64,000 nucleotides of DNA from Escherichia coli phage NG_A1, in the sequence record LC788705.1; one strand, given 5' to 3'. Under the pieces are notes generated by a model. The model made no database searches. It had not been told where the DNA came from and saw only the letters and a list, made by a program, of their open reading frames with translations. Positions 58,385 to 64,000 of the stretch are shown one piece after another. The translations under genes and the position numbers were made by a program. The stretch's first letter is position 1. Every line of letters begins with the position of its first letter.

Positions 58385-58613
58385 TTTCTTTAATCAATTC
58401 TCCCAATTCTCTATAGATTTGATCTAACTCAAAAGATATACGTAATGATATACTTTGCTTTCTCTGCTTTAGCAACCATGCGCCTATACCATTTATGGAT
58501 GCTAGTCTAGCAGGAACCACCCTACATAGCTTTTCCGAAGTATCATAAACAGGAACTTTACGTTCTTTTACTGGAAACTTCCTTGTTTCCCATTTTTTAT
58601 TCTTCACTGTCAT
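58362..58613 (-). CDS. Hypothetical small basic protein (83 aa from ATG)
   Basis: Track ORF 58362..58622 starts at GTG; basic; overlaps neighbours; weak support. Confidence 0.3.
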   Translation of the reverse strand: MTVKNKKWETRKFPVKERKVPVYDTSEKLCRVVPARLASINGIGAWLLKQRKQSISLRISFELDQIYRELGELIKENDNTGRG

Positions 58614-61386
58614 TTCTAGCACCTAGCTCTGACATTGCTTCATCGTGCATATGTTTTTCCTCGTCAGTCATGAACTTATAAGGAATCGGCATACATTCGA
58701 TTTTACAATAGGTTCTGTACCAGTCTACTATATTTTCAGTGTTCATATCCTTACCAATACCCATCATACCAAGATACATTCTTGCATATTTTGGATTAGC
58801 ACTCTGACCTGTTTTAAGGAAGAAGTCCTTCTTCTTACCTTTCAGAGCTTCTATGAATGGTTTAATGGTCACATTTGAACACTTCTTAATATCTTCCCAG
58901 AACATCTCGTGCATCTTATGAAAGAATGCAGCTCGATCATTTGGTTTATCTTTGATATATTGTTCAACATGCTCAACTGTTACATCTTTAATAGACTCAA
59001 GATGATAATAGCGAACAAGAAGTAGTTTAGCTTCATACGCATCTGCATGACGTGGGGCACAGTAATCCGGAGTTGAATGTAGGATAGCTTTGATTCGCTC
59101 TTCTGTATATTCTTTGCCTGCACCTTCGATAGTTCCCCAGCTTTCACTGAAAATATCAATAGTTGCACCCTGATCAAGCAAGTAATAACGTAAGGTACTA
59201 GTATAGTTCCTAGATTCCAGCTCCCTACGACGTGCGTATAATTGCTGTGCTAACTCCAGCCAACCCTCATCAATATTATATTGTTCAGAACCTGCGGAGA
59301 ATCCACTCGTAGATTTATCAATAAAGTAATAAATGTTCTGAGCACCACGGTCGCGCCTGATTGCTTGGAAACGCATGTTTGGCGCTTGGTTGCTGGTTCT
59401 AGTAATAACGAATACGTTATCAAAATAGTTGAAGTCAACGCCACTTGTTACGGATGGACTACATAATAAGCAATCAATTTGTTGGTCAATTAGCTCATTA
59501 GTTGTGTAATCCAGAATACGTCGAATATCTACATCGGATGTAGAATTTGAGTGGATTTCCTTAACTAACGCACCCGTATTACGACGCAATGCCATGCCCT
59601 TCTCATTCAGTTCATCCGGTCCACAGTCAGATACTAGGATAGATTTCTCACCCATCTCTAGAGAAGTCTGAAGTGCAACCCAAATACTGGATTCATCAGG
59701 GAACTCATAAGCATGAGCTTTTGACAGCATTTTACGGTGATGATTATAAAATGCAACTGGTTTATCAAACTCAATCAAAGAACCATATGCTTCAATTGTT
59801 TCTGCACTAATATCCCCATCAGATAATATAATGATTTTTGCAGTTGCAAGAATATCCCGAAGAACCTGAATACATTCACGACGTTGTTTAACAACCGGGG
59901 CGAATAATAGGTCGTTCATTACTGCATCACATTCATCGATAAAGATTGCATCAATTTGACCAATAAAACTCTTGAACTTATGCAAAGAGTGAATAGTTGT
60001 GGACATACGGTCAATAGCACCACGCTTAAAATTAAGCATATCTACAGACTTATCGTATTGTCCTGCACTAAATTTCTTAGCATTTGAAGATACCAGTGCT
60101 CTAGTATTGGTAATTGCTAAAAAATTACCTTTAATAACTCCTGAATCTAACCAACGCACAACCGCCGTGGTTTTACCTGTGCCTAAACTCGCTTTTACAA
60201 AAGTCATATAACCTTCTGGTGGCACAGTATTTAGTTTCAAGAAATTATCAGTTTCTAGAGAATTAGTTTCTAGCTTTTTAAGTGGAATACCTTTTAAAAT
60301 ATCGGGTATATCGCGTTTAGAATTATTAACAAACGCTTTCAGAGCCTGCTTACGACCGTTATTAAAATAATCTTGAATATTACGACTGTTATCTTTAGTT
60401 GCGATATATTCTGATAAGGCTGGACGGATTTCTTTTTCTAGCCATGCAAAATCAACACCATCCTCTAATGCTCTATGGTATAGTTTGGGGATAATACGCA
60501 AGTACACCCCATCCTCAGCTTCTTCTAGTTCGCTGATAGTTTCCTCTACTTTATCAGAGGCAGCTTTTTTACCTTTAATTTGATCGAGTAAAGAGTAAAA
60601 CTCCTCCTTAAACTCACCTCTAGTTGTTTCATAGTCAACCAGATTATTTGGTAAATTTACTTTAGAACCTTTAACAAATACCAGACGTGAAGCACCCTCC
60701 GCTTTAAACGGATCTACTATACCATCGGTAAATAACGGATCTGCAAAATAATGGAGCTGTACGGAAGAGTAATAAGCTAAGTCGGCAATATCAAAGCCGT
60801 ACTTTTGTCTACTACTTTCATTGATAGATGTAAATAAGAATTTGATTTGACCCTGAGTTACTTTAACATTAGATTCTAGTATTAAGTGCATTCGGATACC
60901 TGGTTTTAGCCCAGCCGAAGACGATGCATGAGCGATAAACCCTGCATCAAGAGGAAACATATCCTCACTAATACTATTTAACATCCTAATAATATGTCGA
61001 GCCATGCCAACAAGATCAAACTTGTTACAACCACCTGTATCTACAATACCATCCACGTCCATTGCAATTATATGACTTGGGTTAGATACATTAAAGTTGC
61101 CCTTCTTACGTCGCACATTATTTTTAGGTGCAAGACATCGACCTCGTACCGCAACGATATGAGGGTCAGACGTTAAACGTCTCATAAGAGGAAGCATTTC
61201 TACTAGGGTTTGAGGATCAACTTCATCAATTACATCAAACTTGAAGGGCATTGAGGCTGGTTTACCTTCAGGATGCTTTGAGGAAAATCTTTTAGCAAAA
61301 AGATAGTCTTCTGCTTTAACTTCTCGCCAATTGCCTGTGGCTAAATCGCGATGAAATCCTGCATGACCTTGTAGGATTGAGAACAT
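58597..61386 (-). CDS. Putative SF2 replication helicase/ATPase (929 aa from the RBS-supported ATG)
   Basis: Walker A SLGTGKTT, Walker B IFIDECD, motif VI-like QAIRRDRGA; AGGAG RBS before ATG at 61386. Confidence 0.55.
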   Translation of the reverse strand: MFSILQGHAGFHRDLATGNWREVKAEDYLFAKRFSSKHPEGKPASMPFKFDVIDEVDPQTLVEMLPLMRRLTSDPHIVAVRGRCLAPKNNVRRKKGNFNVSNPSHIIAMDVDGIVDTGGCNKFDLVGMARHIIRMLNSISEDMFPLDAGFIAHASSSAGLKPGIRMHLILESNVKVTQGQIKFLFTSINESSRQKYGFDIADLAYYSSVQLHYFADPLFTDGIVDPFKAEGASRLVFVKGSKVNLPNNLVDYETTRGEFKEEFYSLLDQIKGKKAASDKVEETISELEEAEDGVYLRIIPKLYHRALEDGVDFAWLEKEIRPALSEYIATKDNSRNIQDYFNNGRKQALKAFVNNSKRDIPDILKGIPLKKLETNSLETDNFLKLNTVPPEGYMTFVKASLGTGKTTAVVRWLDSGVIKGNFLAITNTRALVSSNAKKFSAGQYDKSVDMLNFKRGAIDRMSTTIHSLHKFKSFIGQIDAIFIDECDAVMNDLLFAPVVKQRRECIQVLRDILATAKIIILSDGDISAETIEAYGSLIEFDKPVAFYNHHRKMLSKAHAYEFPDESSIWVALQTSLEMGEKSILVSDCGPDELNEKGMALRRNTGALVKEIHSNSTSDVDIRRILDYTTNELIDQQIDCLLCSPSVTSGVDFNYFDNVFVITRTSNQAPNMRFQAIRRDRGAQNIYYFIDKSTSGFSAGSEQYNIDEGWLELAQQLYARRRELESRNYTSTLRYYLLDQGATIDIFSESWGTIEGAGKEYTEERIKAILHSTPDYCAPRHADAYEAKLLLVRYYHLESIKDVTVEHVEQYIKDKPNDRAAFFHKMHEMFWEDIKKCSNVTIKPFIEALKGKKKDFFLKTGQSANPKYARMYLGMMGIGKDMNTENIVDWYRTYCKIECMPIPYKFMTDEEKHMHDEAMSELGARNDSEE

Positions 61387-61885
61387 AACAATACTCCTGT
61401 GTTGGAAATAAAATAAGTTTTCTTTAGGACTATTCAGAAAGAATAGAACAACTGTTACTGTCAATTTCTCAACAAATTAATCGCAAATACTGAAGTGGGG
61501 TGGCAACTTCCACTTTCACGCTGCGCTGCTGCTTTGCTATATCGCACAAATCCTTGAGGATGGCCGCTAAGCCAGATTTGCTCACCTAATGCTTCATATA
61601 CTAGCTCATACTAGATGCAATATAACTTACAGAATCACGTCTCGGAGTTTTTCACTCCTCCCATCTCACTTCACAACCACCTCATACTAGGTTGCTTCGA
61701 GGCCTTACCAGGGTTCCTATGGGACGCAGATCGCTAAGTATTCTATTAACTATTTGTTTAAAAACTAACACGTAACAGTTAAAACAACCCTTAATGGGGC
61801 AGCCTAACTGTTCCGTATCGCGGATTGTAAACAAGAAAAATTAGCAAAATCAATTTTTACTAATGTCTCTCAATTCAATATAAAT

Positions 61886-61914
61886 ATTATATCAAGATTT
61901 TGGGCATCCTGCAA
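61886..61914 (-). promoter_or_regulatory. Early sigma70-type promoter (TTGCAG-N17-TATAAT)
   Basis: -35 at 61909-61914, -10 at 61886-61891 on the minus strand; ~500 nt upstream of the next start. Confidence 0.5.
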
Positions 61915-62005
61915 GTAAAATTTTCCGGATGGTGCTATCATTGGTCTTGAGTACGGATAAAACCGAGCCAAAATGACTCGGTAATCAGAGTTCAGCTAAT
62001 AAAAA

Positions 62006-62398
62006 TCATTCATCATTTAAGCCTGGAACATAAATCCCAACACGGTTTAATTGTTCTTTAGCTTCTTTGAGAATATCTGGAGTGTACTCCCAAATATCAT
62101 CTTCCACCTGTAAAAGATGGGGCGAACAACCATCATCCGACACACGACATATGGCCAAACCACGTGGGTGGAACAAAGAGAAATTTAGGGCAACAATTAA
62201 ACCCATAGCAGACAACTCATTCCAATCCAACTCCCATTCCCCCGCGTAGCCGGATAGGAAAACACCAACACAGGGATCATCTATTTGCTGCTCCGGAAAA
62301 GTGAAGGAGGCTTGTCTTACCCCCAACCAACGTTGCAGCAGCTTCTCCCCACGTTTCACCAAACTAGGATCAATCTGACGCCAATATACTTGTTCCAT
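62006..62398 (-). CDS. Hypothetical protein, tandem paralogue A (130 aa)
   Basis: Shares DDPCVGVFL...MGLIVALNFSLFHP...YVPGLN blocks with the adjacent 142-aa ORF. Confidence 0.5.
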   Translation of the reverse strand: MEQVYWRQIDPSLVKRGEKLLQRWLGVRQASFTFPEQQIDDPCVGVFLSGYAGEWELDWNELSAMGLIVALNFSLFHPRGLAICRVSDDGCSPHLLQVEDDIWEYTPDILKEAKEQLNRVGIYVPGLNDE

Positions 62399-62407
62399 TC
62401 TGCCTCC

Positions 62408-62836
62408 TTAAGCAGTTAAACCTGGGATCATATACCCGAAACGTCGAAGTTTCTGAATCCCCTCATTTACTTCTTCCGGTGAGTAAGACCAACCATAACG
62501 TTCATTAACCTGAAAACCAGGAGATTCACTAGTTTTATAGTTAACAACAAGGCGATGCTTAGCAGGCATAAACAGCTTATAATTTAACGCAAAAACTAAG
62601 CCCATTTCGTCTAACTCTTTCCAGCCCACAATCTCTTCAAGACCCTCCTCTACCTGCACAATTAAACCAATACAGGGAGCCTCATCAATATCATCTTTAA
62701 AAGCAAAGGAGATTTCGTTATTCTCACACCATATTTTCAAAGAGTTAATAGCCTCATTATACAGGCTAGCTGGGAGAGTACGCCAAAAGTTAGCCAAAAT
62801 TGGGTTAGCTTTTTTAGAGAATACATTATTGAACAT
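62408..62836 (-). CDS. Hypothetical protein, tandem paralogue B (142 aa)
   Basis: Alignable with 62006..62398 across the core. Confidence 0.5.
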   Translation of the reverse strand: MFNNVFSKKANPILANFWRTLPASLYNEAINSLKIWCENNEISFAFKDDIDEAPCIGLIVQVEEGLEEIVGWKELDEMGLVFALNYKLFMPAKHRLVVNYKTSESPGFQVNERYGWSYSPEEVNEGIQKLRRFGYMIPGLTA

Positions 62837-62838
62837 AT

Positions 62839-63345
62839 TTACACCTTAAATTGTTGCAAGGATTTACACATTTCAAGATCTGGGCTAAATTCTAGCATAT
62901 AGCTAACAGCTTTTAAATCTTGAAGATTTATCCCAGTCCTACCATTGACTATAACCGTTGGATACTGGTACATCATAGCACCAGCGTCATCCAGAACACA
63001 CCAATGTTTGAGCTTATGCTTTTCAACGAAGCGAAGAACAGAATTACCCCTAGATAATCCACCCCCAGTAAAATCCGTTGTACCAAGAAAACGATCGATA
63101 AGACCTAATCCGGTCATAATCTGAACGTTCTCCATCTCATTCCTGACAGAGAACCATGAGGATACTCCAACAATCATTATCGGAGAAGGACGAATAAAGT
63201 CCTGAAAAGCCTTGAGAAGCGGTTTGAAAACCCAATCACTTCCAAAGAAAATCTTTTCGTCATCAGGTGCATGATGGTGGGAGATGCTCGAATTGAGCAC
63301 CCCATCAATATCTAGAAAAATAATTGGAGTATTACTTATTTCCAT
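62839..63345 (-). CDS. HAD-like phosphatase (168 aa)
   Basis: N-terminal motif IIFLDIDGVLNS (DxDGV). Confidence 0.55.
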   Translation of the reverse strand: MEISNTPIIFLDIDGVLNSSISHHHAPDDEKIFFGSDWVFKPLLKAFQDFIRPSPIMIVGVSSWFSVRNEMENVQIMTGLGLIDRFLGTTDFTGGGLSRGNSVLRFVEKHKLKHWCVLDDAGAMMYQYPTVIVNGRTGINLQDLKAVSYMLEFSPDLEMCKSLQQFKV

Positions 63346-63541
63346 TTTTGTTCCTTTCTAAGAACCTATCATACTCAACCGTATCAACATATATAACACC
63401 ATAGTCATCGGATTTATAGTCCATCTCCCACAGCTCACAGCGATAGCACCAACTACCATCCGCCCATACAAATATATCATCGGGGTGTGTATACACAGAT
63501 TTAACTATGGACATACCTGTTTCCCTTGCTTCTCGACACAT
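63332..63541 (-). CDS. Hypothetical small protein (69 aa)
   Basis: ORF track; overlaps both neighbours. Confidence 0.35.
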   Translation of the reverse strand: MCREARETGMSIVKSVYTHPDDIFVWADGSWCYRCELWEMDYKSDDYGVIYVDTVEYDRFLERNKNGNK

Positions 63542-63845
63542 AAGGTCTACCCTCTAAATGAGCTTCTACACGAGCAATAAAATCAGGATCACTAAAAGCA
63601 TCTACCGCACCTTTACTCCAGTAAGGGACACCACGTTCTTCCAGCTGGTACATCTCACTACGAGTCATACCTTGATAGCCCGGTTCCGCCGCGAGGGCAC
63701 TATCATAGTAGTTAACTACCATAAATTTCGCAGCAGTCCTATTAAGAACAGGAAATAATTCCCAGTAGAAGTTAATTACTTGGTTAGAGCAACCAACCAC
63801 AATGATCATATCTTGACTGGTAATACCATCAAAAACATTATACAT
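63501..63845 (-). CDS. Hypothetical early protein (114 aa)
   Basis: ORF track. Confidence 0.4.
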   Translation of the reverse strand: MYNVFDGITSQDMIIVVGCSNQVINFYWELFPVLNRTAAKFMVVNYYDSALAAEPGYQGMTRSEMYQLEERGVPYWSKGAVDAFSDPDFIARVEAHLEGRPYVSRSKGNRYVHS

Positions 63846-64000
63846 TTCTGCGTATGCAGGAGCATGCTCTCCAAAGAAGATTACATTAGGTTTAACCCAT
63901 TTATAATCATCTGGATCAATAGAATTGTATCCTACATCAATAATCCGTTTATTGCTACTATTGTAGCTATCAGCTACAACAACCTCTTTTAAATATCCGT

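Follow-up and report, generated by a model that had tools for sequence, protein, structure and literature searches.

Two small open reading frames (ORFs) lie side by side at positions 62006-62836 of the window, i.e. the whole 64,000-nt stretch of Escherichia coli phage NG_A1 DNA (LC788705.1) that was analyzed, and they raise the question of what kind of gene pair this is. An earlier note, made from the sequence alone, had described them as tandem, diverged paralogues of unknown function, and had likened them to proteins that target variable host factors. The descriptive part of this note was borne out. Both ORFs, called A (130 aa) and B (142 aa) hereafter, were confirmed at these coordinates on the minus strand, and the motifs quoted as their common core were found in each of them (DPCVGV, MGLIVALNF and VPGL in A; APCIGL, MGLVFALNY and IPGL in B). 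BLASTP aligned the two proteins over 124 residues with one gap, at 31% identity (67.8 bits, E = 2e-20), while their Smith-Waterman score of 164 was far above the maximum of 60 reached by 2000 shuffled controls (27.5 +/- 4.6, z = 29.6), so that the pair passes the control which the note itself had named as decisive against paralogy. No DNA-level repeat between the two genes was detected by a repeat scan, as expected from 31% protein identity. Both proteins matched the Pfam family DUF7415 (PF24187, gathering cut-off 27 bits) with 101.8 bits for A and 122.1 bits for B, in two matched stretches each, as well as the 134-position PHROG profile phrog_2502, which describes the two-domain T5-type protein (A, residues 1-129, E 6.5e-60; B, residues 11-142, E 1e-62). 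These two families, together with phrog_3954, phrog_33705 and phrog_1812, which contain single-core relatives, are all annotated as being of 'unknown function', in agreement with the earlier note on this point.

The window belongs to a Tequintavirus, and the 2.5 kb surrounding the pair share 99.2% identity with Escherichia phage EC148 and 98.7% with T5_ev212. Phage T5 itself (NC_005859) is more distant and has two copies of the neighboring T5.103/T5.104 family where this phage has one, but B and A are 91% and 95% identical, respectively, to the T5 proteins T5.106 (YP_006934) and T5.107 (YP_006935), both recorded there as 'hypothetical protein'. Lengths, gene order, operon and terminator match, and nothing essential differs. 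The genes are thus already catalogued, as T5.106/T5.107, DUF7415 and phrog_2502, so that no new entity is revealed here. By contrast, the DUF7415 and PHROG entries hold no record of the split between a canonical and a remodelled T5 gene, nor of the domain contexts and fusions described below. The labels 'Phage exonuclease (ACLAME 70)', 'tail tube protein' and 'tail protein', carried by GenBank records, found no support, as no nuclease or tail-tube domain or fold was found. Searches of the literature for DUF7415, for the names T5.106 and T5.107 and for the accessions returned no main-text mention, the genes appearing only in the supplement of PMC11879866.

The pair closes an operon of the T5 early region, transcribed from the minus strand in the tightly packed order Sir2-like gene, small ORF (63332..63541), HAD gene, B, A and terminator (Table 1). 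B and A are separated by 9 nt and lie in the same frame. The hairpin found 24 nt past the stop codon of A, at the end of the operon, matches in position the terminator given in the T5 and BF23 annotations. All Demerecviridae lineages examined have a Sir2-family gene upstream of their one or two DUF7415 genes. Sugarlandvirus, Slocum and Eos lack the HAD gene, which is therefore no obligate partner of the DUF7415 pair; on this ground, the idea that HAD and DUF7415 are functionally linked was rejected. In phage records, the T5.105-type HAD gene is often labelled 'Sir2 (NAD-dependent deacetylase)' via phrog_18062, without having any Sir2 domain, and in a few cases 'RNA repair protein'; DT57C retains just its last ~40 residues.

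Table 1. Coordinates of the DUF7415 gene pair, of its domains and of the surrounding operon elements in the window, listed in the direction of transcription.
Feature	Position	Strand	Characteristics
Sir2-family (CobB-like) gene, T5.102 orthologue	63501..64000, past window end	minus	intact gene
HAD_SAK_2 phosphatase-like gene (T5.105)	62839..63345	minus	stop 2 nt from the start of B
Gene B	62408..62836	minus	142 aa, ATG start; T5.106 orthologue; two-domain DUF7415, core remodelled; pI 4.95, net charge -5
B N-terminal domain, residues 16-65	62642..62791	minus	Pfam DUF7415 on isolated half, E 9.7e-20; AF2 strand-helix-strand-strand
B remodelled core, residues 68-128 (GWKELDEMGLVFALNYKLFMPAKHRLVVNY..SES..WSY)	62453..62635	minus	16.9 bits vs single-domain HMM; motif table
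Shine-Dalgarno AAGGAGG of A	62403..62409	minus	overlaps the TAA stop of B (62408-62410); read from sequence
Gene A	62006..62398	minus	130 aa, ATG start; T5.107 orthologue; two-domain DUF7415, canonical core kept; pI 4.5, net charge -10
A N-terminal domain, residues 3-54	62237..62392	minus	Pfam DUF7415 on isolated half, E 2.7e-14
A canonical core, residues 57-115 (DWNELSAMGLIVALNFSLFHPRGLAICR..GCS..WEY)	62054..62230	minus	61.3 bits vs single-domain HMM; Pfam on isolated half, E 1.2e-13
Intrinsic-terminator-like hairpin ACCGAGUCA-UUU-UGGCUCGGU, then UUUUAU	61958..61982	minus	fold -14.8 kcal/mol, z -2.3

The pair is an old, stabilized and asymmetric duplication, and not a family with fast turnover. 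When B was queried by tblastn against 50,697 phage records, it was matched at 1038 places in 525 records (~500 Demerecviridae genomes), i.e. two per genome, in Tequintavirus, Epseptimavirus and Klebsiella Sugarlandvirus. A remodelled copy upstream and a canonical copy downstream were found in this same order in four lineages, Tequintavirus, Epseptimavirus, phage Eos and Sugarlandvirus. The adjacent pair lies between a Sir2-family or Sir2-annotated gene upstream and the origin-binding protein downstream in Sugarlandvirus, Eos, beppo, phiR2-01 and BF23, while Serratia phage Slocum has one two-domain gene at the same site, with a canonical core. Orthologues are 67-99% identical across genera, and both genes are under purifying selection: pairwise dN/dS (NG86) was 0.08-0.13 for B and 0.10-0.24 for A in measurably diverged comparisons, the values of 0.02 (B) and 0.37 (A) coming from a near-identical T5/BF23 pair with very few substitutions. 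In a rough neighbor-joining tree, the B-type clade stands apart from the A-type, with the upstream and downstream genes of Sugarlandvirus on opposite sides; this distance tree is indicative of a duplication that would be older than the split of these genera. Profile searches with the pair profile gave matches limited to close T5-like contigs, and those with the distant-homologue profile gave no related loci.

The asymmetry of the pair resides in the C-terminal core. It was evaluated with an HMM built from stand-alone members of 60-100 aa only, with no T5-like sequences, and scored on both paralogue types. A-type orthologues reached 58-81 bits (mean 66.9, n = 21), and B-type orthologues 10.5-23.7 bits (mean 19.5, n = 23), the two genes of this window behaving likewise (Table 1). 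Upstream and downstream copies scored 16 and 60 bits in Eos, 4 and 46 bits in Sugarlandvirus, 24 and 68 bits in beppo, and 24 and 76 bits in phiR2-01, while the single-copy protein of Slocum reached 49 bits. At the residue level, the canonical pattern N..H-P-x-G-L-A..R..G-x-S is present in A (HPRGLAICR and GCS), whereas B reads MPAKHRLVVNY where the motif should be, having lost the consensus His, Gly-Leu-Ala and Arg. Across the alignment, A-type proteins have FHPxGxAxxR...GxS, and B-type proteins FMPAKHRLVVNY, LLRESYIPV or LYPRHSQISLDW. The remodelled core is as conserved as the canonical one, with a mean identity among orthologues of 77% in B and 78% in A, and the best-conserved segment of both proteins is the C-terminal helix with its invariant PGL tail (85% in B and 81% in A). 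The idea of B as a decaying copy was ruled out by this core identity of 77% and by its dN/dS of 0.08-0.13. A has thus kept the ancestral core, whereas B has exchanged key polar positions (His, Gly-Leu-Ala, Arg) and yet is equally constrained. Such a situation, in which one copy keeps the site and the other loses it under selection, both being co-expressed, is also that of enzyme/pseudo-enzyme or canonical/degenerate paralogue pairs; the likeness is an analogy of evolutionary pattern only and not a family assignment.

The core, rather than the whole protein, is what other phages have. From 1.84 billion representative proteins, a profile that combined the two paralogue groups retrieved 158 (E <= 1e-3); apart from ~20 two-domain ones of 130-160 aa, nearly all of these match positions ~55-110 only. 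This core of ~50-55 residues (DWNxLSxxGLIxRINxEILHPLGLAxxRDPxTGxSxGxLVxxDGxWEY) occurs mostly in stand-alone proteins of 60-110 aa, from P2-like, T4-like and T5-like phages. Although the 81 single-domain proteins compared have a mean identity of just 38%, conservation reaches 90% or more at 24 positions. The family is acidic, with a median pI of 4.85 and 94% of the single-domain members below pI 6, which favors protein binding over nucleic-acid binding. The core, predicted as helix, helix and beta-hairpin, is confidently modelled as a fold that has no match in the PDB. When A, B and two family profiles served as sequence queries, no match was obtained among all PDB chains. Foldseek against BFVD returned family members only, and no match was found in NCBIfam, nor with the 5027 PADLOC models for A, B and three single-domain relatives.

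With regard to the N-terminal half, the 53-position Pfam model matches the N- and C-terminal halves of A and B when these are submitted alone (E 1e-13 to 1e-19), according to which each protein would be an internal duplication. In the AF2 model, the order of elements is broadly similar in the two halves (strand, helix, strand, strand), with the C-terminal helical segment split in two. Direct comparisons of N- with C-terminal halves gave no homology, with an hhalign probability of 1-10%, E > 0.1 for the core HMM against the N halves, and pairwise Smith-Waterman scores at shuffle level.

The contexts in which the DUF7415 core occurs offer indications on its role. In P2-like phages and prophages, the DUF7415 gene closes the early operon, where it immediately follows the gpA replication nickase, and in many cases it is fused to an ASCH/DUF3850 ORF or overlaps one. 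These ASCH/DUF3850-DUF7415 proteins, which are relatives of P2 Orf91, share with the T5 proteins the core, the early location and the adjacency of replication genes; they differ in having one core fused or adjacent to ASCH, the T5 proteins being two-domain. In one P2-like prophage, however, the DUF7415 gene lies in a late operon, within the gpL-gpX interval, which counts against a role in replication. In the T4-like Jiaodavirus (Klebsiella phage JD18, L004 4001-4219), a DUF7415 gene of 72 aa overlaps the nrdD end on one side and the nrdG start on the other, an arrangement suggestive of translational coupling within the anaerobic ribonucleotide reductase operon. In the T4-like Slopekvirus and Pseudotevenvirus, it is found two genes after a nudix hydrolase. 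Elsewhere, it lies beside a PurA/PurZ-like gene and an NAD ligase, or among small unannotated early genes. Out of 44 longer family proteins, only ~9 have a recognizable fusion partner and the rest none; the partners are PF04447 (dATP/dGTP pyrophosphohydrolase), ASCH/DUF3850 and DUF551, twice each, and thymidylate kinase, PGDYG and a ClpX-type zinc finger, once each. Taken together, these contexts point to early replication and nucleotide metabolism, by guilt by association and not by a statistical test; the neighborhood signal is weak, because early regions of large phages are rich in nucleotide genes anyway. As a separate observation, nrdD lies just upstream of the Sir2/DUF7415 operon in T5-like phages, and no nrdG was seen among T5.100-T5.104.

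P2 itself deserves a remark, since the annotation of T5.106 cites a similarity to P2 Orf91. Orf91 is composed of ASCH/DUF3850 only (core HMM, E 0.14) and has no domain in common with T5.106; the similarity was rejected for Orf91, and holds for those Orf91 relatives which retain the DUF7415 part. When Orf91 (L019 3317-3646) is compared with ASCH-DUF7415 proteins (L013/L014 4874-5321), ASCH is common to both and divergence begins right after DWLEDYVLL. This point is precisely that at which a DUF7415 part would start, and the tin/old defence cargo comes immediately after it; the DUF7415 part thus appears to have been lost from P2 at the hotspot boundary.

The results may be brought together in an explanation with two parts. 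The descriptive part, namely ancient two-domain DUF7415 duplicates, fixed at two copies, co-transcribed at the 3' end of an early Sir2-like/HAD operon and maintained by purifying selection, is one that we hold with high confidence. The mechanistic part, which we prefer over its rivals but at low confidence, is that of a co-expressed protein-binding pair, one member canonical and the other degenerate, acting in early replication or nucleotide supply; it is possible but rather unlikely to be right as it stands. The whole explanation, description and mechanism together, we consider plausible but short of probable. From a mechanistic point of view, the core would be a compact, acidic module for binding a protein or a ligand, engaged in early DNA replication and nucleotide supply. 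A would bear the ancestral binding surface, and B may be a specialized, non-redundant partner, in the simplest case a putative hetero-oligomer partner that would mimic the homodimer presumed for the single-domain relatives. The C-terminal helix and (I/V)PGL tail, confined to two-domain proteins, may serve as a second docking element.

Published fitness data bear on the two genes. In the supplementary data of a CRISPRi-ART screen of T5, T5.107 is listed as 'Fit' (-2.90, K-S P 0.0215), one of 17 Fit T5 genes, and T5.106 as 'Not Fit' (-3.28, P 0.167), the T5 threshold being FC > -3 (PMC11879866). At face value, this part of the published data agrees with the canonical copy A as the functionally dominant one. 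The call for T5.107 is the weakest of the Fit calls in this supplement and is individually unvalidated. The origin-binding protein T5.108 is also listed there as 'Not Fit' (PMC11879866), which indicates a low sensitivity of the screen.

The density of invariant polar residues in the core (Asn, His, Arg, Ser, Glu, Asp) counts against the reading as a binding module, as it fits a catalytic or small-molecule site equally well. The core could accordingly be seen as a miniature oligomeric enzyme, or as a sensor of nucleotides, NAD or ADP-ribose, that would partner the nucleotide enzymes nearby or fused to it, A being active and B a pseudo-enzyme or regulatory subunit. Conservation of 90% or more at each of Asn7, Ser10, Arg17, Asn19, Glu21, His24, Arg32, Ser39, Asp47 and Tyr52 is exceptional for 50 residues, and it is precisely the His and Arg positions that B lacks, a loss common in pseudo-enzymes. 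The fusions to dATP/dGTP pyrophosphohydrolase and thymidylate kinase, like the neighboring Sir2 (in all Demerecviridae examined), nudix, NrdD/NrdG and PurA/PurZ-like genes, also favor this alternative, which we regard as unlikely overall. In its most far-reaching form, it would make the core an unrecognized fold, a minimal enzyme or a nucleotide/NAD/ADP-ribose switch tuning nucleotide and NAD metabolism at the onset of replication in P2-, T4- and T5-like phages, with T5.107 as the active subunit and T5.106 as a pseudo-subunit, alongside the adjacent phage sirtuin; such a scheme is speculative and distinctly improbable.

The small size, acidity and early expression of A and B would also suit inhibitors of host functions, involved in counter-defence or host takeover and blocking a conserved host nuclease, dNTPase or NAD-depleting effector, for example. 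The wide distribution of the family in unrelated phage groups of Proteobacteria, the NAD-related neighbors in T5-like phages and the location on the edge of the P2 defence hotspot fit this possibility, as does the marginal fitness effect listed for T5.107, but the latter was obtained in laboratory E. coli with few defence systems. Moreover, it would be unusual for inhibitors engaged in an arms race to be so extremely conserved, under purifying selection and constant in copy number, and the known defence and anti-defence models searched, those of PADLOC only, gave no match. This alternative thus seems quite unlikely. A winged-helix-like nucleic-acid-binding domain, acting as a regulator of transcription or replication, is very improbable; a comparison with winged helix-turn-helix DNA-binding domains, judged by structural similarity at a significant level and by the presence of a basic surface, was negative. 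Lastly, rapidly diversifying paralogues that track variable host factors, as the earlier note had proposed, are suggested by the tandem arrangement of copies just 31% identical, and by the adjacent T5.103/T5.104 small-gene family, which varies in copy number, but this reading is largely refuted and scarcely credible in view of two copies in nearly all of the 525 records, an order and polarity kept in four lineages, low dN/dS values and well-conserved orthologues.

Returning to the gene pair, the present analysis narrows down an uncharacterized and very widespread phage module, found in three major lineages near replication and nucleotide genes. Comparison of A with B (T5.107 with T5.106), or the use of point mutants at His and Arg positions, offers a built-in contrast for the search for partners or ligands. 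A delimited core unit, the availability of canonical and remodelled copies, the lack of a solved fold and a published fitness hint make the family experimentally tractable.

The neighborhood of the pair deserves further remarks. The T5.103/T5.104 family indeed has different copy numbers in T5 and in this phage. T5 has two adjacent small phrog_5116 paralogues, T5.103 and T5.104 (L003 5244-5602), which have the motif DIFxxxxGxWCYR in common, and this phage has, at 63332-63541 on the minus strand, the T5.104 copy alone, with 58 of 60 residues identical. An in-frame lead of nine codons (MCREARETG) in this ORF resembles the N-terminus of T5.103, as if T5.103 had been deleted.

Downstream of the operon, a segment at 61864-61924 (minus strand) displays, over 40-60 nt, 87-97% identity to Klebsiella T5-like phages, in some records twice. 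The slightly longer segment at 61860-61934 (minus) corresponds to an early promoter of 75 nt (TTGCAG-N17-TATAAT) that the T5 annotation places past the T5.107 terminator, and looks like a conserved early promoter module of the T5 type. It is followed at 61465-61860 (minus) by an untranslated leader of ~400-470 nt, running from the promoter to the origin-binding-protein gene; the sole ORF within this leader has 50 aa and a TTG start (61682..61834). This leader had no Rfam match at E <= 1, and Rfam, tRNA and repeat scans of 61.0-64.0 kb gave nothing relevant. Finally, the origin-binding/helicase ORF at 58597-61464 (minus) extends to 955 aa when read from the TTG at 61464, against ~929 aa (2790 nt) in related records, and translation probably starts at the downstream ATG (61386) rather than at this TTG.
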